A DNA stretch of 32,000 nucleotides, taken from Candidatus Lokiarchaeum ossiferum (GTDB lineage: Archaea > Asgardarchaeota > Lokiarchaeia > Sigyniarchaeales > Promethearchaeaceae). The stretch covers positions 3,510,001-3,542,000 of the forward strand of contig CP104013.1 in the NCBI GenBank assembly GCA_025839675.1, read 5' to 3'. Below, in pieces: positions 5,479 through 30,560 of this stretch. How positions within the stretch are numbered: position 1 is the stretch's first letter; the number at the start of each line of letters is the position of its first letter. A model generated the notes under the pieces. The model was not told where the DNA came from and ran no database searches. It saw only the letters and a list, made by a program, of their open reading frames with translations. The position numbers were made by a program, and so were the translations under genes.

Positions 5479-7599
5479 ATGGTTAATCTCTCTTCAGCAG
5501 CTCTTCCCTCGGAAGAAGAACTTGAATTTAAAAGGACCAACTTACCCCTTAAACCGGGTGTTTATATTTATAAAGACAAAGATCGCAAGATTATCTATGT
5601 TGGGAAGGCCAAATCTCTTCGGAATCGGGTAAATTCATATTGGAAGGAAAGAAGTAAAAGTGAAGATCCGATATATGCTCAAAAAATCACCCGCTTAGTT
5701 GCACATATTCGGGATTTAGAAGTATTTGTAGTTGATAATGAAACTGAAGCACTCTTGTTAGAAAACGAGCTTATCAAGAAGAATCAGCCGATTTATAATG
5801 TCATGCTTAAAGATGATAAAAGCTACCCTTGGGTTCAGATTACCAACGAAGCTTTCCCACGAATCAGAATAATTCGAGGACCTGAACGATATGGGTTGCA
5901 ACATAAATATATCGGACCTTTTGTCGATGGGTATGATCTTAAGAAAACAATCCGTTTCATTCGAAAAATTTTTCCTTTCTGTACGTGCAAGAAAACGACA
6001 TCCCGAAAAAAGCGAACACGCCCCTGTGTGTACTACCAAATTAAACTATGTCCTGGTCCTTGTTTTGGTTATATCACGAAAGAAAAATATAATCAAAACA
6101 TACGAAATATAGAATTACTTTTAACTGGAGAAATCAAACCGATTCAATCCATGATGAAAACTAAGATGGAAAAAGCGTCATCGGAGTTAGCTTTTGAGGA
6201 AGCTGTAGTCTGGAGAGATCGACTTCAAGCATTGGAGCAATTCACAATTGAACAATCGATCCTATCCTATGATTTAGCAGATCCAGAAGAAAATTCTTCT
6301 CAAGAATTGGAAAACGCTGACGATTCTAATCAAGAAAGGCTGGAGGGACGAACTTATAAAAAACCGTTACAAAATCTCCGAAATTTGGATGTTATTGCCG
6401 GTCATTATTCTAAAAAACGGGCGGGAATTGTAATTATTCATGTTCGGTATGGACGCGTCTTGGGAAAAACTCCCTATGTATTTGATGTGAAAGAAAAGCT
6501 CACCTCAAAAACGGACTATATTCTCTCACTTTTGAAACAACACTATCTTCGACCTGATATTCCCCTTCCTGATGAAATCGTTTTGGAAACTCAACTTCCT
6601 TCAGATATAGAAACAGGGTTGCTTACTTACTTTTCCACCCGCGAAACCCATCCATCTAAGCTCAAAATCTCTCCCCAAAAACGAAAACATGTTAAATTTC
6701 GGTTACCTTCAGAAGTTGATAAGACCGCGGGGTTAATTCGAATTGCCAAAAAAAATATCGAGCTTCTCATCAGTCAAAAGGATGAATATGAACAGCATCA
6801 GAAGGAAAAAGAAATCCAATTGGTAGAACAAAGTAAAATAAATCAAGGTTTGCGAGATTTGCAGACTGTTCTAGAATTGGATGATGTCCCGCTTATTATT
6901 GAAGGATTTGATATGGCTCATCTGCAAGGGACAGATTATACAGGATCAATGGTCTGCTTAGTAGAAGGAAGGCCAAGTAAGAAACATTACCGTCGTTATA
7001 AAGTGCGTACGGTTGATAAACCGGATGATATTGCTGCGATGAAAGAAGTTATGACGCGTCGTTACACACGCGCTATAAAAGAAAGCACGTTACCAGATCT
7101 GGTAGTTGTTGACGGGGGCAAAGGTCAATTGAATATGACCCATAAACTCTTTGTAAATCTTGGTATTGATTATGTTCCTCATATTGGTCTGGTAAAACCC
7201 GAAGGAAGAAGTGAAATTTACAAAACTCCCAGGATAGTCATCCCCGATGAGGAAGAGACACTTCAACTTCCAAAAAATTCACCTGCTTTACATCTGATTC
7301 AACATCTGCGAGATGAATCTCATCGATTTGCGAATGCATATCATCGGAAATTACGAAATAAACGCCAAACTAAATCTGAACTAGATGAAATTCCTGGAAT
7401 TGGCCCAGCCCGAAAAAAGAAGTTACTGCAATTATTGGGTAGTGTTGCCGAAATTAAAAGAGCATCCGAAGAAGCTTTGGAAGGGGTGATAGGTCCTGTC
7501 TTGGCGAAAACGGTGTTCGAATACTTTCAACAAAAAGCTCTTGAAGCCCAGAAAAAGCCAAAAAAGAAAAAATATAAGTTAACAAAAAAAAAGAAATGA
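5479..7599 (+). CDS. uvrC: excinuclease ABC subunit C (UvrC)
   Basis: N-terminal GIY-YIG module (GVYIYKDKDRKIIYVGKAKSLRNRVNSYW, YNVMLKDDKSYPW). UvrBC-interaction-like segment (FEEAVVWRDRLQALE). Endonuclease V-like region (IEGFDMAHLQG, VVVDGGKGQL). C-terminal (HhH)2 (LDEIPGIGPARKKKLLQLLGSVAEIKRAS). A Lys-rich tail is unusual. Confidence 0.9.
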   Translation: MVNLSSAALPSEEELEFKRTNLPLKPGVYIYKDKDRKIIYVGKAKSLRNRVNSYWKERSKSEDPIYAQKITRLVAHIRDLEVFVVDNETEALLLENELIKKNQPIYNVMLKDDKSYPWVQITNEAFPRIRIIRGPERYGLQHKYIGPFVDGYDLKKTIRFIRKIFPFCTCKKTTSRKKRTRPCVYYQIKLCPGPCFGYITKEKYNQNIRNIELLLTGEIKPIQSMMKTKMEKASSELAFEEAVVWRDRLQALEQFTIEQSILSYDLADPEENSSQELENADDSNQERLEGRTYKKPLQNLRNLDVIAGHYSKKRAGIVIIHVRYGRVLGKTPYVFDVKEKLTSKTDYILSLLKQHYLRPDIPLPDEIVLETQLPSDIETGLLTYFSTRETHPSKLKISPQKRKHVKFRLPSEVDKTAGLIRIAKKNIELLISQKDEYEQHQKEKEIQLVEQSKINQGLRDLQTVLELDDVPLIIEGFDMAHLQGTDYTGSMVCLVEGRPSKKHYRRYKVRTVDKPDDIAAMKEVMTRRYTRAIKESTLPDLVVVDGGKGQLNMTHKLFVNLGIDYVPHIGLVKPEGRSEIYKTPRIVIPDEEETLQLPKNSPALHLIQHLRDESHRFANAYHRKLRNKRQTKSELDEIPGIGPARKKKLLQLLGSVAEIKRASEEALEGVIGPVLAKTVFEYFQQKALEAQKKPKKKKYKLTKKKK

Positions 7600-13010: not shown

Positions 13011-15344
13011 ATGACTGAGAATATTATTTTGAGAACTTTGCCACAGAACGATTTTAATTCTTCCATTTCTCGAGATGCTCACACCTTTCTGGAAACAAAA
13101 TACAAAGTTCTCTTTGAAAATACTTCGGATGCTATCATTATATATGAAAATTCAAAACTTTCGGATTGTAATGAAGCGGCCTTCAAATTACTCCGGTATT
13201 CATCAAAAGAAAAATTCCTCTCATGTAGTTTTTTAGATTTTACTCCTGAGTTCCAACTTAATGGTCTTTCATCACTTGAAATGGCTCAAAATGTCATAAA
13301 AATTGCTTTTTTGAATGGTTCTCATCATTTTGATGCTCTTCTTAAACGAAATGATGGTTCTATTTTTCCTGCTGAAATTTTATTAACTGCCAGAATTTTT
13401 GAAAGTAGTAAACTGTTATTTATAGTCGTAAGAGACATATCTCAAAGAAAACAATTCTTAGAAGAGTTAAAAATCAGTGAGAAACGCTTTCGGTTGCTCT
13501 TTGAAGAAAGTCCTCTCGGAATTGCTTATCATCAGATGATTTATGATGAAAATCAAAATCCAATTGACTATATATTTCTCGATTATAATAAAAGGTTTGC
13601 TGAAATGACAGGTCTCGGTGATGATATTGCAGGAAAAACGATAATGGAACTCATACCCGATTTTCAAAACCGAAAACCCTTAGTTTTTGAAAACTATAAG
13701 GTTGTTGTTAAAACGGGGAAAACCTTACAATTTGAATCATTTCATGAAGAATCTCAGACATGGTTTGATGTAACAGCCTATAGTCCGCGAAAAGGCTTTT
13801 TTGTGTCCCTACTGAAAGATATTACAGATCGGAAAGAAGTAGAAATTGCCCTTAATGTCAGTGAAGCTAAACATCGCGCCATTTATGATAGCTCCCATGA
13901 TGCGATTATGATTTTAGTTCCTAATAAGGGTTTCATCGAAGCAAATATCGGTACTTTAAAGTTATTTGGAATTCAACAACAATCAGAGTTTGTTGGAAAA
14001 ACTCCCGCAGATTTTTCTCCTAAATTTCAACCAGATGGACAATTAAGTTCTGTAAAAGCAGATCAAATGATTCAAATTGCTTTGGATACTGGTTCTCACT
14101 TTTTTGAATGGGTTCATCAAAGAACTACTGGGGAAAATTTTCAAGCGACTGTCTTACTCAATCGGATGGAGATTCAAGGAAACGTCTATGTACAAGCACG
14201 AGTCCATGATATCTCTTTCATTAAAAATTCTGAAGCTGAACGGGAGCGTTTAAATGCTATTATTGAATCAACCACTGATCTCATTTCTACTTCTGATGCA
14301 ATGCAAAATTTAACTTTTATGAATAGTGCAGGTCTTGCCTTGCTTGGAATAGAAAAAAAATCTGATTTAAGCAAGATGAAGATCGAAAATATTCACCCAA
14401 AATGGGCTTTTGAGAAGATTTCCCGCGAAGGAATTCCTAAAGCCATTAAAAATGGTGTTTGGAGAGGTGAGACTGCTTTAATCTCCCAAAATTTAATAGA
14501 AATTCCAGTTTCGCAAGTAATAATGACTCATTGCGATGATTCAGGCAAGGTTAATTTCTTTTCTACCATCATGCGAGACATATCCGAACGAAAAAGAATT
14601 GAGGAAAAAAATAAGCAAATGGAAGAAGAGTTGTGGAAGAATCAAAAAATGGAATCTATTGGGTTTCTTGCTGCAGGAATTGCCCATGACTTTAATAATT
14701 TTTTAACTACCATCCTAGGTAATATTTCATTAGCTCGATCGGAAGATTCAGCCTTAACTCCTGAACTACGTGAGATATTAGAAGAAGTTGAAAATGCATC
14801 TCAACGGGCCAAAGAACTAACTAACCAATTATTGCTTTTTGCCAAGGGAGACGCTCCAACAAAAAAACTAACAACAATTCAGGATTTGATTATAGAAACC
14901 TGCAATTTTACTTTACGAGGATTAAGTGTAAAACCCACCTATGATATTGCTCCCGATTTATGGAAAATAAATGTTGATGCGGGCCAAATTAGTCAAGTTA
15001 TAAACAATCTGGTATTAAATGCTTATCAATCATTTGAAATTAGTAATAATATGGAAAATGCTGTAATTTTAATTAAAGCCTGTAATATTACTGATGCATC
15101 TAAATTAAATAGTTCATTGAACTTTCAGAAATCGATCCAAATAACAGTCCAAGATAATGGACGTGGGATTTCTCCCGATGTGGTGCCACGAATTTTTGAT
15201 CCATATTTTACTACCAAAGAAACAGGTTCTGGGCTTGGACTTTCGGTGTGTTATTCTATAGTTAAGAAGCATGGTGGGCATATTGAAGTAGAATCTAAGA
15301 TTGATGAAGGAAGTAGTTTTACCATATATCTTCCTGTGCATTAA
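13011..15344 (+). CDS. multi-PAS sensor histidine kinase (cytoplasmic)
   Basis: About four PAS/PAC modules (repeated YxxLFExSxDAI, RDI(S/T)xRK linkers). HisKA H-box GIAHDFNNFLTTILG. HATPase_c N-box VINNLVLNAYQS, G1 QDNGRGI, G2 GSGLGLSVCYSIVKKHGG. No TM segment seen and no receiver gene adjacent. Confidence 0.85.
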   Translation: MTENIILRTLPQNDFNSSISRDAHTFLETKYKVLFENTSDAIIIYENSKLSDCNEAAFKLLRYSSKEKFLSCSFLDFTPEFQLNGLSSLEMAQNVIKIAFLNGSHHFDALLKRNDGSIFPAEILLTARIFESSKLLFIVVRDISQRKQFLEELKISEKRFRLLFEESPLGIAYHQMIYDENQNPIDYIFLDYNKRFAEMTGLGDDIAGKTIMELIPDFQNRKPLVFENYKVVVKTGKTLQFESFHEESQTWFDVTAYSPRKGFFVSLLKDITDRKEVEIALNVSEAKHRAIYDSSHDAIMILVPNKGFIEANIGTLKLFGIQQQSEFVGKTPADFSPKFQPDGQLSSVKADQMIQIALDTGSHFFEWVHQRTTGENFQATVLLNRMEIQGNVYVQARVHDISFIKNSEAERERLNAIIESTTDLISTSDAMQNLTFMNSAGLALLGIEKKSDLSKMKIENIHPKWAFEKISREGIPKAIKNGVWRGETALISQNLIEIPVSQVIMTHCDDSGKVNFFSTIMRDISERKRIEEKNKQMEEELWKNQKMESIGFLAAGIAHDFNNFLTTILGNISLARSEDSALTPELREILEEVENASQRAKELTNQLLLFAKGDAPTKKLTTIQDLIIETCNFTLRGLSVKPTYDIAPDLWKINVDAGQISQVINNLVLNAYQSFEISNNMENAVILIKACNITDASKLNSSLNFQKSIQITVQDNGRGISPDVVPRIFDPYFTTKETGSGLGLSVCYSIVKKHGGHIEVESKIDEGSSFTIYLPVH

Positions 15345-24771: not shown

Positions 24772-25968
24772 TCAAAATTTTTTCTTCCAAAATTTGTAGG
24801 CCCGTAAGTAGTCTTTCACTTGGATTACTTTGGGATTACGGCGAAAACTGCTTGGAATCGTCCCATCACAACGAGAACATAGACTAGAAGTGCGTACCCA
24901 ATTTTTGAATTCATCCACGTGGGCGGGATAATTACAATTTGGACAGAGAACAATCCCCCGATGCCCGTCAGAAGTACTCGGAAGTTCAAAACAGAATATA
25001 CACTTGAAATCATCGGGGGTTAACACTCCAGTCTTTGGTTTCATACGTAAAAGTTCTTTTTTGCTTACTGAGGAAGAAGAGGTGGTCCTAGAAACTTTTG
25101 GTTTAGAAGACGATTTGGACTTTGAACGTTGTAGGCGTTCTTGTTCCCTTTGTTGTTTTCTCCGGGCTTTCTCTTCCTGCTCACGACGACGAGATTGTTT
25201 TCTCTCCAAATCTCTTTGTCTTCTTCTCTGGTCACGCTTCTGTTGTTCTTGGGCTTGGGCTTTTTTCTCTCTCTGGCGAGCTGCATCGGCAAAACGATCT
25301 GCGTCCTCTATTTGACGATCGATATTGTTCAACCTATTAGAAACACCTCGCATTGAAAATCCTGAGATTCTGGGCCTACGTTTGGTGATCGCAAAGAGAA
25401 AATAGATTACTAATACACACAAATTCAGAAGAATTATCAAATTGATTCCAGAAGTTTCAGGCGCAATATTTTGAAACACGTTTCCTCCCAGAACAAGATA
25501 AATAAAATCAAAAGAAATGAGAATCAAACTTGTAATGATCATAAATGGACGAGCATCAATTGATTTGGTTCCAATGAAAACGGTAAAATATTTTGAAATG
25601 CAAAACGACAATAAGATCATACTAAAAAATAAATAGGGGACAGCAAGAATTAGAGTCCAAATATTGAAGGATACATTGATAGGCAGTACCACATCCTGCA
25701 AAATTGTTGTAAAATCTCCCCAAATCCCATAAAATGTTCCTACTAATAAACCCCCAAATATAATTACAAAATTATTCAGCGAAGCACTATATTCGCGGAC
25801 TCGTTTTATCTTGGAAACATATTCGAATAAAATACAAAGCCATAATCCAAGTAATATATGTGAAAAGAAACCATTCAAAGAATCACTTGGTGCATTTCCG
25901 GTAAAAACTGCAATGAGTAAGCTAACTACAAGAACTACAAAATATAAAATGATCTTTGAAACTTTCAT
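24772..25968 (-). CDS. polytopic membrane protein with charged linker and C-terminal RING-like zinc finger (candidate membrane E3 ligase)
   Basis: The N-terminal ~200 aa hold ~6 TM helices. A ~75-aa R/K/E/Q segment follows (RQREKKAQAQEQQKRDQRRRQRDLERKQSRRREQEEKARRKQQREQERLQR), then a Ser/Lys-rich spacer. The finger reads CIFC-x15-CPNC-x4-H-x2-E-x3-W-x7-CSRC. Confidence 0.7.
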   Translation of the reverse strand: MKVSKIILYFVVLVVSLLIAVFTGNAPSDSLNGFFSHILLGLWLCILFEYVSKIKRVREYSASLNNFVIIFGGLLVGTFYGIWGDFTTILQDVVLPINVSFNIWTLILAVPYLFFSMILLSFCISKYFTVFIGTKSIDARPFMIITSLILISFDFIYLVLGGNVFQNIAPETSGINLIILLNLCVLVIYFLFAITKRRPRISGFSMRGVSNRLNNIDRQIEDADRFADAARQREKKAQAQEQQKRDQRRRQRDLERKQSRRREQEEKARRKQQREQERLQRSKSKSSSKPKVSRTTSSSSVSKKELLRMKPKTGVLTPDDFKCIFCFELPSTSDGHRGIVLCPNCNYPAHVDEFKNWVRTSSLCSRCDGTIPSSFRRNPKVIQVKDYLRAYKFWKKKF

Positions 25969-26034: not shown

Positions 26035-26871
26035 TTATTCGTCATATTCCAAAAACAAATCTTGACCATCTACAATAGGATTAGCAAAATCCAACAGTTC
26101 GGGAAGGACATTTGGAGAGATATTTCCTTTGATTTTAAACGGAACTTCATACCACTTGGCAGTCTTTAAATTAGCACGGAAAATATTAAATCCATATGAA
26201 CTTCCATCAATTTGGTAAGGATCGATAACTAATGCTACCGATTTTTTCCATAATTTCTGATAACGAGCTTGAGTCCCCATATCCTCAGAGCTTAAAAATA
26301 GTCCATAGGATGGATGGGAGTGATACCATCCGCAAATAAAGAGGCCTTTTTTTTGCAAGTCGGTGTATGCTTTAACATAGTTGTTATAATCTTTAATTTC
26401 TGCATGAATGGCATTTCCATGCCCCATTGGGTAGACATCTTCAATATAAAGTACTTCATTGGGCTCATCCCACTTTCCCGCCAATAAACCAATAACTTCT
26501 ACCCATTTAGATCTTTCTATTTTGTCATTTGCATATTTTTTTGCATGAGTTGCAATTTTTAAAATGGCTTTTGCTGAAATTAGAGTTTTTTCTTCTTCTT
26601 TTACTGGTGCCATTTGGGAGCCAATTAACTTTTCACTATTCGCTTGGGCATTATTTTTCTTCACTATTTTTTTAAAACTTGTACTCAGAGTTTCATCGGA
26701 AAGCATTTCTTGTTCGCTAAATTTTTCCTCATTACTCTCTTCATTTTTGAGTTCCTGATAGATTTCTTGAAGAACTTCTTTTTTTATCTCGTTTTTTAAT
26801 TGCTTTAGCATTTCTGCTTTTAATTTTACTTTTAATTCCTTGATTTCAGGAGAATCGTTTTCATTTTCCAT
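26035..26871 (-). CDS. JAMM/MPN+ metalloisopeptidase (Rpn11/CSN5-like)
   Basis: Catalytic Glu in WVEVIGLLAG and the complete JAMM motif GWYHSHPSYGLFLSSEDM (HxHx7Sx2D). The catalytic core is preceded by a ~100-aa K/E-rich extension. Confidence 0.9.
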   Translation of the reverse strand: MENENDSPEIKELKVKLKAEMLKQLKNEIKKEVLQEIYQELKNEESNEEKFSEQEMLSDETLSTSFKKIVKKNNAQANSEKLIGSQMAPVKEEEKTLISAKAILKIATHAKKYANDKIERSKWVEVIGLLAGKWDEPNEVLYIEDVYPMGHGNAIHAEIKDYNNYVKAYTDLQKKGLFICGWYHSHPSYGLFLSSEDMGTQARYQKLWKKSVALVIDPYQIDGSSYGFNIFRANLKTAKWYEVPFKIKGNISPNVLPELLDFANPIVDGQDLFLEYDE

Positions 26872-26884
26872 AATAATTACCTGA

Positions 26885-27412
26885 TCACCATTTTTTGTTG
26901 GCGTATTTCTTGACTAAATTTTTGACTTTTTTATCAAATTTTTTCGGCTCTTTCATCATTTCCAGCGCTGCTTTTTTATTAAATACGTCTGTTGGATTAA
27001 TATACGATCCAGCAGTGTTCAACATTGCTGTAATTGCTTGAATCACTGTAACTGCCGTTTTTGAAGGACTCCAACCTCCCTTCTTTCCTATGTAGTTTGG
27101 ATCCACTAACGCTAAGCAAATATTTCGTTGTCCTACATATTCGGTAGGTTTGGGCCAAAAATTCGGATGCCATATTGGTGTGTGTAAACGAACGAATGGT
27201 GGTTGGCTTGGATACTCTGCTGGGAATTTCATCTCAAGCCTAAATAATCCCTTTGCATAGGCTGTTCCTTTTGGTCCTACTAACAGTATTTTCAAGTGAT
27301 CAATACTTTTTTTACTGGAATCAAAAGCTTTCAATTGTTTAATTGTCCCATCTTTGTACAATTTCTTTAATCTAGCGTAATCTTGTGTAATTCTTTTTTG
27401 TCTGAGACTCAT
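26885..27412 (-). CDS. UBC-fold ubiquitin-conjugating enzyme (E2)
   Basis: GPKGTAYAKGLFRLEMKFPAEYPSQPPFVRLHTPIWHPNF...RNICLALV...WSPSKT. The HPN triad is at residues 82-84. The active-site Cys99 codon is at 27116-27118, with WSP downstream. Confidence 0.9.
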   Translation of the reverse strand: MSLRQKRITQDYARLKKLYKDGTIKQLKAFDSSKKSIDHLKILLVGPKGTAYAKGLFRLEMKFPAEYPSQPPFVRLHTPIWHPNFWPKPTEYVGQRNICLALVDPNYIGKKGGWSPSKTAVTVIQAITAMLNTAGSYINPTDVFNKKAALEMMKEPKKFDKKVKNLVKKYANKKW

Positions 27413-28788: not shown

Positions 28789-29145
28789 TTATATTCCCGC
28801 AGTACTTGCGGGAATAAGTAAAACTGTATCTCCGTCCTTGACGGGATAATCCATTATGAATTTTCCTTCATCCATGGTAACTCCACCATGGGACAAGTGA
28901 AAATCGGATGGATTAACTCCAAATATATTTCCAACAGTTGTTTTAATATCTCCAACTTGATTTCCAGTGTTCACGAGTAATTTCTGCTTTTTCTCACCAG
29001 GACCAATTGTAGACATGAAGAAAACTGAAATATCTTTACCTCCTGGTGCTTGTGCCGCATTTGGTGTTTTTGAGGCAATAGCAGGGGTTTTATCTTCGAT
29101 ATCTTCATCCAAATCTTCATCTAAGTCATCAAAATCTTCTGACAT
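28789..29145 (-). CDS. ubiquitin-like beta-grasp protein with acidic N-terminal extension
   Basis: First gene of the E1/E2/JAMM cassette. The C-terminal ~80 aa (DISVFFMSTIG...KKQKLLVNTGNQVGDIKTTVGNIFGVNPSDFHLSHGGVTMDEGKFIMDYPVKDGDTVLLIPASTAGI) have the length and hydrophobic pattern of a beta-grasp Ubl and a Gly next to the C-terminus. The N-terminal ~40 aa are D/E-rich. The fold assignment is inferred, not demonstrated. Confidence 0.65.
   Translation of the reverse strand: MSEDFDDLDEDLDEDIEDKTPAIASKTPNAAQAPGGKDISVFFMSTIGPGEKKQKLLVNTGNQVGDIKTTVGNIFGVNPSDFHLSHGGVTMDEGKFIMDYPVKDGDTVLLIPASTAGI
28792..28816 (-). promoter_or_regulatory. perfect 10-bp stem, 5-nt loop hairpin over the last codons of the Ubl gene
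   Basis: tattcccgca-gtact-tgcgggaata. The GC-rich core stands out in an AT-rich context. It spans the codons for PASTAGI and ends one nt before the stop. Confidence 0.45.
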
Positions 29146-29324
29146 ATGTTTTCACTTTTTTTATTTACATTTCCTTTTTTCAGAGAAAAAAAGAAATTTG
29201 ATCCTTATCATCGTTTCCAGCTTTTTATGTGTTTAGTTTTTTCTAACCTTAACCGAACATAAATAAGGGAAGTTGGTGCAATTTATATAAGAGTAAGAAT
29301 AACTCAATCTCCAAAATTTATTTT

Positions 29325-30560
29325 GTGATCAAAGTGGTAAAGCAAAAAACTCCCGATTCTACTATTCGCGTGAAAACACCTGTTATTTCATCGAAAACTC
29401 CCTCGGATCTTGATTCAAATCAACTAAAATCTGAACGCAAAAAACTTGAAGCGGAACGTCAAAAACTAGAAGAAGAACGAAATCAATGGCAAAAAATACT
29501 TAACAAAATGCAACAATATTCCGATTCCCTTGATGAACTTGAACAAAAACGAAAAGACAAGATTGATGATATCAAAATTCTTGAGCGTGATCGGAAAAAT
29601 ATTGTTGAAGACATCGATCGTTTGAATAAATCATTCGATGAAGGAAAGAAACGACTTGACAATGTAATTTATGATCTTGAAGACAAAAATGGAGTTCTTA
29701 GACGTAAAGAACTAGAGTTGGAAGATCGAGAGAAAGATCTTGAAGATCGCCATCATCAGATTAAAAAAACCCGCATAAAAGTTCAGGATAAAATCAATGA
29801 CGCAAAAGAACAACTTGAAGATTTTGACTCGAAAAAAGATCGTCTTGATCGGGATGTCCAAAATCTTGAGCGTAAGAAACAAAATTTAATTGACGATCTC
29901 CAGAACGAAAAAGAACGTCTCAATAAAACAAATAGGGATCGAAAAGCACTAGAAAAAGAACGAAATCAATTGCAAAATGAAGTAGATCGCTTGAATCGTG
30001 AAAAAGATAGGATAAGGGATGAACGTAAGCGATTAAATCAAGAGAAAGATGATTTAAACAAAGTCCGTGATCGGATTCAAGATGAAAAAGATGCTTTAAG
30101 AAAGAAACGGAAGCAAGAAGAAGATCGTATGAACAAAATCCAACGAAATGCTGCTGATGATCTCAAAAAAACACAACAAAAACGAAAACAAGCAGAAAAT
30201 GAATGGAATAATTATCGTAAAAAAATTCCTGAAGCCGAACGGAAACTGCGTTCAATGGAGAAAAAGGTTGATGACGCTAAAGGAGATTGGAATCGTATCA
30301 AACGTGATAATGATCAATTGAAAAATGAAAATAAACACCTTCAAAATGATAATCGACGAATCAATGATGAAAAGAAACGTCTAAGAAAAGAACGAAATGA
30401 CATTGAAAATGAAAAGTCTAAAATCAAGCGATTGGAGAAAGACCTCGAGGGAAGGATGCGCAAAGTTCAAAATTTACAAAAAGATTTAGAGAATCAAATT
30501 CAAAAGGCGAAAATAAAATCTAAAACCCCTGGAATTCGGTCTAAAACTCCAGGTTGGTAA
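29325..30560 (+). CDS. long heptad coiled-coil protein with KTP-motif termini
   Basis: About 360 aa of nearly uninterrupted K/E/R/D/N/Q heptads (e.g. EVDRLNR-EKDRIRD-ERKRLNQ-EKDDLNK-VRDRIQD-EKDALRK). They are flanked by QKTP..VKTP..SKTP at the N-terminus and SKTPGIRSKTPGW at the C-terminus. The start is uncertain: GTG 29325 or GTG 29334, with no nearby ATG. Confidence 0.6.
   Translation: MIKVVKQKTPDSTIRVKTPVISSKTPSDLDSNQLKSERKKLEAERQKLEEERNQWQKILNKMQQYSDSLDELEQKRKDKIDDIKILERDRKNIVEDIDRLNKSFDEGKKRLDNVIYDLEDKNGVLRRKELELEDREKDLEDRHHQIKKTRIKVQDKINDAKEQLEDFDSKKDRLDRDVQNLERKKQNLIDDLQNEKERLNKTNRDRKALEKERNQLQNEVDRLNREKDRIRDERKRLNQEKDDLNKVRDRIQDEKDALRKKRKQEEDRMNKIQRNAADDLKKTQQKRKQAENEWNNYRKKIPEAERKLRSMEKKVDDAKGDWNRIKRDNDQLKNENKHLQNDNRRINDEKKRLRKERNDIENEKSKIKRLEKDLEGRMRKVQNLQKDLENQIQKAKIKSKTPGIRSKTPGW

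Follow-up and report, generated by a model that had tools for sequence, protein, structure and literature searches.

In the current study, we describe a short peptide motif, centered on the tripeptide K-T-P, that is shared by two divergently transcribed neighbors in the archaeon Candidatus Lokiarchaeum ossiferum: a ubiquitin-like modifier (Ubl), which carries the motif in its N-terminal leader, and a coiled-coil rod protein, which carries it at both ends. The window analyzed here is a stretch of 32,000 nucleotides (positions 3,510,001–3,542,000 of a single-contig genome of 6.04 Mb and 33.6% G+C), in which the Ubl, E1, E2, JAMM, and membrane RING-like genes form a cassette of five co-directional neighbors on the minus strand. 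The archaeal-type operon set—that is, a Ubl, a ThiF-type E1, a UBC-fold E2, a JAMM protein, and a RING-type protein, all co-directional—is present. A preliminary description of the window had proposed that the motif ties the coiled-coil gene to this cassette, and the link is strongly supported by the conserved motif, by synteny, and by joint loss of the two genes. Because the motif is shared and the genes are inherited and lost together, the rod appears to be the first protein that can be put forward as a natural target, or as a docking partner, of the tagging system. From the sequence comparisons presented below, the motif may serve biochemically either as an acceptor site for conjugation or as a docking peptide.

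Seven K-T-P Copies in the Tails of Two Proteins

The preliminary description had listed seven K-T-P tripeptides in the two divergent neighbors, and all seven lie where it placed them, its ranges spanning the first Lys to the last Pro of each cluster (Table 1). Two copies occupy the Ubl leader, the motif-bearing part of which reads ...DIEDKTPAIASKTPNAAQ..., three lie at the N-terminus of the rod (MIKVVKQKTPDSTIRVKTPVISSKTPSD; nucleotides 29346–29354, 29373–29381, and 29394–29402), and two are found close to the rod C-terminus. The decapeptide pattern KTPxIxSKTP occurs three times, as KTPAIASKTP, KTPVISSKTP, and KTPGIRSKTP.

The Ubl consists of an acidic leader, the two K-T-P copies, a beta-grasp core (residues 33–117), and a ...STAG-I end. 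In its AlphaFold2 model the core is confident and the leader is disordered, with a predicted local distance difference test score (pLDDT) below 50 at residues 1–4 and 10–26; residues 1–30 as a whole are modeled as disordered, and the leader is not docked on the modifier's own beta-grasp core. The rod is modeled as three helices (residues 31–63, 69–163, and 171–392), with pLDDT below 50 at residues 1–6, 12–16, 21–27, and 395–408. These low values in the tails of both proteins agree with the earlier proposal that the motif is restricted to disordered tails, to which it is predicted to be confined in both cases. The rod also has an internal K-I-P (window positions 30222–30230, residues 300–302), a possible hinge or further site, which AlphaFold2 models within a continuous helix; of 32 orthologs, 23 have K-[I/L/V]-P there.

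Clustering Relative to the Genomic Background

The K-T-P tripeptide had been described as rare, which does not hold for the genome overall: among 5,213 open reading frame calls (1.78 million residues), 289 copies were observed, compared with 255 expected from composition. It is the clustering at this locus that lies beyond chance. At the background rate of 1.6e-4 per residue, the probability of finding at least five copies in 411 amino acids is 9e-9, or 5e-5 after correction for 5,213 genes, which bears out the enrichment estimated earlier, and the coiled-coil rod is the sole protein of the genome with more than two copies. When the whole genome was translated in six frames, K-T-P pairs at most 12 residues apart were found in real genes only at this locus; elsewhere, such pairs amounted to three off-frame or non-coding chance matches and one repeat. 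The only other KTPxIxxKTP in the genome (position 1471570) falls in an off-frame stretch of 34 codons inside a gene encoding 1,260 amino acids and was dismissed as a chance match. The preliminary description had also suggested looking at the frequency of the motif elsewhere in the genome, and [IVM]xxKTP proved to be at chance level outside the locus (51 observed versus 49 expected), with no excess in the other proteins. A few further proteins carry a single terminal copy, for example a 194-residue protein ending in SRIEQKTPK (genome positions 2845393–2845977), and were set aside as indistinguishable from chance. The rest of the window contains exactly three copies, as had been reported, namely GKTPYV and YKTPRI in UvrC (5479–7599) and GKTPAD in a PAS histidine kinase (13011–15344); the translated residues among which they occur total about 9,600, not about 8,000. 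The observation of K-T-P clustering is thus real and far above chance.

Within each cluster, the copies arose by tandem duplication of a 21-nucleotide unit, and therefore the independent units are three clusters rather than seven sites, and the decisive statistic is conservation rather than count. A DNA pattern encoding two K-T-P copies with a spacing of seven gave 48 matches in 26 related genomes, compared with 16 for a reversed control; 33 of the 48 lie in Ubl or rod genes, and the remaining 15 are at control level.

Conservation of the Motif and Constraints on Its Residues

Comparison of orthologs upheld the K-T-P core of the motif first written as (S/V/Q/D)KTP and revealed two features that had been overlooked: a longer consensus, psi(-3)-[R/K](-2)-[S/T/E](-1)-K-T-P, in which psi is a hydrophobic residue, and a minimal core, K-x-P. 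In 36 aligned Ubl orthologs from several Asgard families, K26, T27, and P28 are invariant, and the rest of the leader varies in length and sequence, bar an acidic F/L-containing stretch; conservation in orthologs, which the preliminary description had proposed to examine, thus extends down to lineages in which the E1 is only ~43% identical. At least one leader K-T-P is present in 137 of 149 distinct Ubl orthologs, the 11 leaders that lack it mostly having SK[A/V/S/I]P at the same place, and the motif Lys lies 14 or 19 residues ahead of the STIGP core motif in 108 of these 137.

In the rod, K17 and P19 are invariant among 32 aligned orthologs, and K-T-P is found at both ends of 56 of the 66 complete orthologs, which range in length from 283 to 569 residues. 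The N-tail consensus is I-[RK]-[E/S]-K-T-P; that of the C-tail is I-[KR]-[ST]-K-T-P followed by about three residues, with a terminal Tyr in 54 of 68 orthologs. Between one and four copies occur per tail, the number changing by tandem duplication of the 21-nucleotide unit. In many orthologs, one dodecapeptide recurs at the two ends, reading ...IPKYQIREKTP in the N-tail and ...IPKYKIKSKTPSKY* in the C-tail. In Pfam, the rod matches only generic coiled-coil families below threshold, and the ESM Atlas returned only generic coiled-coil look-alikes, all with a score <0.8 or a template modeling (TM) score <0.3.

The likeness of the two ends might indicate head-to-tail assembly, in which the same N- and C-terminal peptides would join rods into a filament or lattice and the Ubl leader would cap or join the ends. 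Intermediate filaments, whose conserved rod ends join end to end, also combine a long alpha-helix with conserved N- and C-terminal peptides, although the rod described here has no match to the Filament family of Pfam. A long uninterrupted helical rod with short disordered ends, the presence of the same peptide of ~12 residues (IPKYxI[RK]xKTP) at both ends in many orthologs, and a length range such as a spacer might have would all suit this proposal. However, both tails are basic, so that direct tail-to-tail pairing is electrostatically unfavorable, the carriers of the motif in distant lineages are short disordered K-x-P-rich or VapB-like proteins rather than rods, and the strict linkage to E1, E2, and JAMM genes is left unexplained; we regard assembly as unlikely.

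The residues of the motif are constrained to different degrees. Of the tail tripeptides, 208 read K-T-P, 42 were K-x-P in which the middle position was not Thr, and 14 were x-T-P in which the first position was not Lys, none of these being R-T-P. Degenerate copies have A, V, I, K, R, Q, or Y in place of Thr and keep Lys and Pro, and K-S-P was found only five times, compared with 208 K-T-P. Judging from these alignments, Lys and Pro form the hard core of the motif, with Thr as a strong preference. This pattern disfavors the earlier suggestion that the T-P step is a proline-directed phosphorylation site, and with it any other modification of the Thr that would regulate both proteins. T-P is indeed the minimal site of proline-directed kinases, the copies lie in disordered tails, and the preference for Thr at +1 is strong (208 of 250 tail K-x-P); Ser, however, almost never replaces it, non-phosphorylatable residues do, and Thr-Pro is missing altogether from some Ubl leaders (e.g., SKAP and SKVP). 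Moreover, no Ser/Thr kinase or phosphatase was found in the conserved neighborhood across 78 loci, the kinase in the window being the PAS histidine kinase, 14 kb away. Regulation through the Thr is accordingly quite improbable.

Conservation also bears on the simplest alternative, namely that the motif has no function and is a product of chance, a by-product of low complexity or tandem duplication, or a nucleotide signal (AAAACNCC) near divergent promoters. The copies within a cluster are recent 21-nucleotide duplicates and K-T-P is not rare genome-wide, as such a view would have it. On the other hand, three separate clusters are kept in two genes even though the rods share only 25–30% identity, and the background controls are at chance level. 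The Thr and Pro codons vary synonymously (ACT/ACA/ACC/ACG and CCT/CCA/CCC/CCG), and because third positions vary freely, selection acts on the peptide. A nucleotide-level signal was rejected on the same ground, and because the C-terminal cluster lies 1.2 kb from the promoter region. An absence of function is thus highly improbable and, as far as the ortholog alignments go, effectively refuted.

Synteny, Co-inheritance, and Loss of the Module

Within the class, 100 of 121 genomes have an ortholog of the Ubl, and five additional families elsewhere in the phylum have one too; the labels of the Ubl-bearing genomes include Promethearchaeota and Promethearchaeia as well as Hel-, Hod-, Hermod-, Odin-, Thor-, and Sifarchaeum metagenome-assembled genomes. 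Orthologs of the rod were found in 29 of 41 related genomes. Most of the 78 loci, which were fetched by a Ubl profile, share the order rod (-)/Ubl (+)/E1/E2/JAMM/membrane RING in several Asgard lineages, so that the synteny of the coiled-coil gene with the cassette, a second point raised for checking, is kept as well.

Among the 33 genomes sampled for both genes, rod and Ubl are both present in 24, both absent from nine, and discordant in none, counts that are inflated by kinship. Several independent losses are implied, because the absences fall inside genera that otherwise hold both genes. Five genomes without the module have only a paralogous E2 (38–41% identity versus 55–78% for orthologs) and a longer paralogous E1. 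In the intergenic gap of a complete related genome we found a relic of the rod C-tail, 24 codons from stop to stop (NDLENHLRDINSKTPGIRTKTPYY; …SKTPGIRTKTPYY), and this genome lacks the Ala-Gly-type Ubl, its E1 and E2 orthologs, and the rod gene; the relic looks like the footprint of a whole-module deletion.

In distant families (f10, f19, and f26), the place of the rod is taken either by shorter K-x-P-rich proteins of high charge or by a VapB-like protein; all of these have RIKxKTP and are encoded divergently from the Ubl or at the cassette end. As judged from these sequences, the motif seems to behave like a portable tag among unrelated carriers within the cassette. In one distant Asgard family, a VapB/RHH-like protein of 126–149 residues with RI[KQ]xKTP mid-protein is encoded divergently from the Ubl, and a disordered protein of 230–290 residues with up to five psi-x-x-KTP is encoded 3' of the membrane RING gene.

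Two further arrangements were noted. One large Lokiarchaeia family has a second Ubl paralog at the locus and, between the duplicated Ubls, two extra genes, which encode a 264-residue protein that has a beta-grasp domain at its C-terminus but neither an Ala-Gly end nor K-T-P, and a 220-residue double winged-helix protein; a nucleotidyltransferase-fold gene is regularly located 3' of the rod gene in the same family. Stand-alone Ubl copies (L109, L117, L125, L128, L133, L135, L136, and L146) have two leader K-T-P and lie far from E1 and E2; no rod gene adjoins them, and their neighbors have no convincing terminal motif.

A Possible Acceptor Lysine or Docking Peptide

Our first-ranked reading, held tentatively and at somewhat less than even odds, is that K-T-P is a SUMO-style acceptor-lysine consensus, through which chains would be built on the leader of the modifier and the rod would be tagged at its two ends. 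The E2, possibly together with the RING protein, would recognize the extended K-T-P peptide, the C-terminal Gly of the modifier would be transferred onto the motif Lys, and the JAMM enzyme would remove the modifier again. The motif Lys in the leader would permit chains, much like Lys11 in the tail of SUMO2/3, and the two rod ends would be dedicated acceptor sites, making the rod a built-in substrate of the system. This reading was ranked first because Lys, alone among the reactive residues, is never exchanged, because the architecture mirrors that of SUMO2/3 Lys11 and the psi-K-x-E substrates, and because the motif moves between unrelated carriers inside the cassette. That the code would be a SUMO-like psi-x-x-K-T-P, read by a ubiquitin-type E2 or by the membrane RING E3, is put forward with the same reserve. 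Compared with Ubc15 and UBE2T, the cassette E2 contains a seven-residue insertion (FWPKPTEY, residues 85–92) between HPN and Cys99, which is mostly invariant (FWPKPxEY) in 13 orthologs from distant Asgard families; located next to the catalytic Cys, the insertion could possibly form a motif-reading surface. A co-fold of the E2, the Ubl core (33–117), and the C-terminal 40 residues of the rod, each chain with its own alignment, gave a score of 0.02 as compared with a mark of 0.32, a result that bears neither way on binding and that concerns this one combination. The RING-like assignment was read from the Cys/His finger in the translation; Pfam gave no RING match.

In SUMO systems, the consensus psi-K-x-[D/E] is read directly by Ubc9, and chains are formed via consensus lysines in the disordered N-terminal tail of the modifier, as in SUMO2/3 (Lys11) and yeast Smt3. 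The likeness to the present system lies in a short lysine-centered motif with a hydrophobic position, set in disordered regions, and in the occurrence of that consensus both in the modifier's own N-terminal extension, just N-terminal to the beta-grasp core, and in other proteins. The differences are considerable. The hydrophobic residue is at -3 instead of -1 and the +2 position is Pro instead of Asp or Glu, so that the sequence is not psi-K-x-[D/E]; the modifier is Ala-Gly-ended, distantly ubiquitin-like, and not of the SUMO family; a JAMM metalloprotease takes the place of an Ulp/SENP cysteine protease; the E1 is a single ThiF protein of 412 residues; E2 binding and lysine modification are predictions here; and in this genome the motif is found on one dedicated neighbor and not proteome-wide. 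The system is therefore SUMO-like in its logic at most, and no member of the SUMO family.

Several observations weigh against an acceptor consensus. The proximal K-T-P of the Ubl is invariant and at a near-fixed distance from the beta-grasp core, even in stand-alone copies, a placement that is no less consistent with a recognition element required when the modifier itself is handled than with a chain site of optional use. A docking groove would likewise demand both the strongly preferred Thr at +1 and the invariant Pro at +2, the tails contain many other lysines, and the motif has no acidic +2 residue of the SUMO kind. RING-dependent ubiquitylation is normally consensus-free. Losses of Thr in the Ubl leader and in the rod showed no association when matched genome by genome (table 19/19/9/9), and the conjugate, the isopeptide, and any enzyme-motif contact are inferred from sequence.

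These points lead to a shared docking peptide, which we consider a possibility almost as likely as the acceptor consensus. In that case K-T-P would be bound non-covalently by one component of the cassette (E1, E2, JAMM, or the RING-like domain) or else by a reader encoded elsewhere. Handling of the modifier would depend on the peptide, and the rod, probably dimeric and with the same peptide at its two ends, might serve as a multivalent scaffold, a recruiter, or a pseudosubstrate regulator of that component. The invariance of the leader K-T-P and its fixed distance from the core in every Ubl paralog, including stand-alone copies, suit docking, as does the constraint on three consecutive residues plus a hydrophobic -3 position, which is like that of typical short linear docking motifs. 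A conserved aromatic residue ends the tail three residues past the motif, and co-inheritance and co-loss with the cassette fit docking as well as they fit an acceptor site. However, only candidate readers can be named for such a peptide, and the AlphaFold2 model leaves the leader off its own beta-grasp, a weak objection that concerns self-binding only. Docking motifs usually tolerate a Lys-to-Arg exchange, yet none of the 222 x-T-P tail tripeptides is R-T-P, and the many K-x-P copies with a variable middle residue in distant lineages suit "lysine before proline" better than a precise groove.

Relationship to Other Conjugation Systems

The operon of Caldiarchaeum subterraneum is reportedly arranged as Ub-E1-E2-small RING-Rpn11. 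Asgard ubiquitin and ESCRT systems have the same enzyme set as the present cassette, with a Ubl, a ThiF-type E1, a UBC-fold E2, a JAMM protein, and a RING-like protein (PMC9192718; bioRxiv 10.1101/2023.07.25.550441), and UEV-Vps23, which is ubiquitylated by a Helarchaeota cascade, provides a precedent for an operon-linked substrate (bioRxiv 10.1101/2023.07.25.550441). When these two sources (PMC9192718; bioRxiv 10.1101/2023.07.25.550441) were searched by term, neither the leader motif nor the coiled-coil neighbor was found to be mentioned. Full-text literature searches (Asgard ubiquitin with coiled-coil or N-terminal extension; KTP motif) likewise returned no description of the motif, the sole "KTP motif" paper found being concerned with the C-terminal tail of Raf and unrelated. 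The modifiers of archaeal ubiquitin operons are Gly-Gly-ended and have no acidic K-T-P-bearing leader, whereas the present one combines such a leader with an Ala-Gly end; in addition, the RING-like protein is here a multi-pass membrane protein, and the genome also holds a separate, motif-free GG-type ubiquitin.

The exact Ala-Gly end is found in 103 of 148 Ubl orthologs. The remaining 45 (~30%) have one to seven extra residues past it, in this case a single Ile (28789–28791). Because most orthologs stop directly at Gly, C-terminal processing would be needed in some genomes only. The second, GG-type ubiquitin consists of 84 residues, ends in ...QAGGY, and has neither an N-leader nor K-T-P. A second E2 is encoded elsewhere in the genome, and the coordinates of the second system also include G000:C1:4002513-4002947. 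The presence of the GG-type ubiquitin and the second E2 indicates that two Ubl systems coexist, only the Ala-Gly one carrying the motif.

Two eukaryotic systems offer a partial parallel. UFM1 has a single Gly end after processing and modifies lysines in the tail of RPL26, and Atg12-Atg5 with the coiled-coil Atg16 represents a modifier with a dedicated target. Common to these and the present system are a one-Gly end, sometimes a short pro-peptide, very few dedicated targets, and a coiled-coil partner in the module. No sequence relationship to them was detected, Pfam giving a weak ubiquitin match only; furthermore, the E2 described here has a canonical UBC fold, unlike UFC1 or Atg10, and neither system has a linear motif common to modifier and target.

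Features of the Locus and of Related Loci

The coordinates of all features are collected in Table 1. The start of the rod gene is probably GTG 29334 (MVKQKTP...) and not GTG 29325, as suggested by orthologs that begin with ATG at that position (MVKQKTP). The shared spacer given in the preliminary description therefore has its 179 nucleotides with the upstream start and 188 nucleotides with the start suggested by the orthologs.

Table 1. Coordinates of the Ubl cassette, the rod gene, their motifs, and related features. Plain positions refer to the window; other locations carry the handle of the locus (L) or of the genome and contig (G, C).
Feature	Location	Strand	Evidence or remarks
Ubl, 118 residues	28789..29145	-	Open reading frame; weak PF00240 match (6e-5)
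Acidic-hydrophobic N-leader MSEDFDDLDEDLDEDIED, Ubl residues 1-18	29092..29145	-	Every aligned ortholog has a (D/E)F(D/E)E(D)L-type stretch; disordered
Ubl leader motif 1, K19-T20-P21 in DIEDKTP	29083..29091	-	Copy variable among orthologs
Ubl leader motif 2, K26-T27-P28 in AIASKTP	29062..29070	-	Invariant copy
Coiled-coil rod protein, 411 residues, ~360 of them alpha-helix, disordered tails	29325..30560	+	Open reading frame
Rod N-tail cluster: K8TP, K17TP (IRVKTP), K24TP	29346..29402	+	K17TP is the conserved copy
Rod C-tail cluster: K400TP, K407TP (KIKSKTPGIRSKTPGW*)	30522..30551	+	K-T-P at 30522-30530 and 30543-30551; tandem 21-nucleotide duplication
E1, ThiF family, 412 residues	27504..28742	-	PF00899, E = 1e-58; directly 3' of Ubl
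E2 (UQ_con), catalytic Cys99	26885..27412	-	PF00179, E = 5e-26
JAMM/MPN+ isopeptidase	26035..26871	-	PF01398, E = 1e-14
Multi-pass membrane protein with charged linker and C-terminal Cys/His zinc-finger (RING-like) domain	24772..25968	-	Translation
AT-rich divergent intergenic region, 179 nucleotides	29146..29324		Read from sequence
TTTATATA box	29282-29289		Upstream of coiled-coil gene, in divergent spacer
GG-type ubiquitin	G000:C1:2823804-2824058 (L155 1453-1707)	+	
Rod C-tail relic	L159 8104-8178 = G011:C1:594103-594177	-	
Carriers in distant family	L065 9041-9421 and 2310-3170	+ and -	Equivalents in L064 and L068
Genes of duplicated-Ubl locus	L043 8243-9037, 9135-9797, and 5553-6602	- (all three)	

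Implications for Archaeal Ubiquitin-Like Systems

In vitro reconstitution has been achieved for eukaryote-like ubiquitin cassettes from Asgard archaea, and to our knowledge almost nothing is known of their natural targets and site rules. A motif that is present both in the tail of a modifier and in a co-inherited neighbor supplies a concrete candidate substrate or partner and a candidate recognition code; the rod would be a putative natural target or docking partner. If the Lys is an acceptor, the system would be an archaeal counterpart to consensus-directed conjugation and tail-mediated chains, which have so far been hallmarks of SUMO. No natural substrate or site code would have been described earlier for an eukaryote-like Ubl system of archaea, and motif-directed Ubl conjugation would be older than eukaryotes. 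If K-T-P is instead a docking peptide, it would represent a new recruitment element of the Ala-Gly-ended Ubl family, a family separate from the GG-type "Loki ubiquitin". Under both readings, a functional context is gained for the rod protein, which most of the sampled Lokiarchaeia possess.

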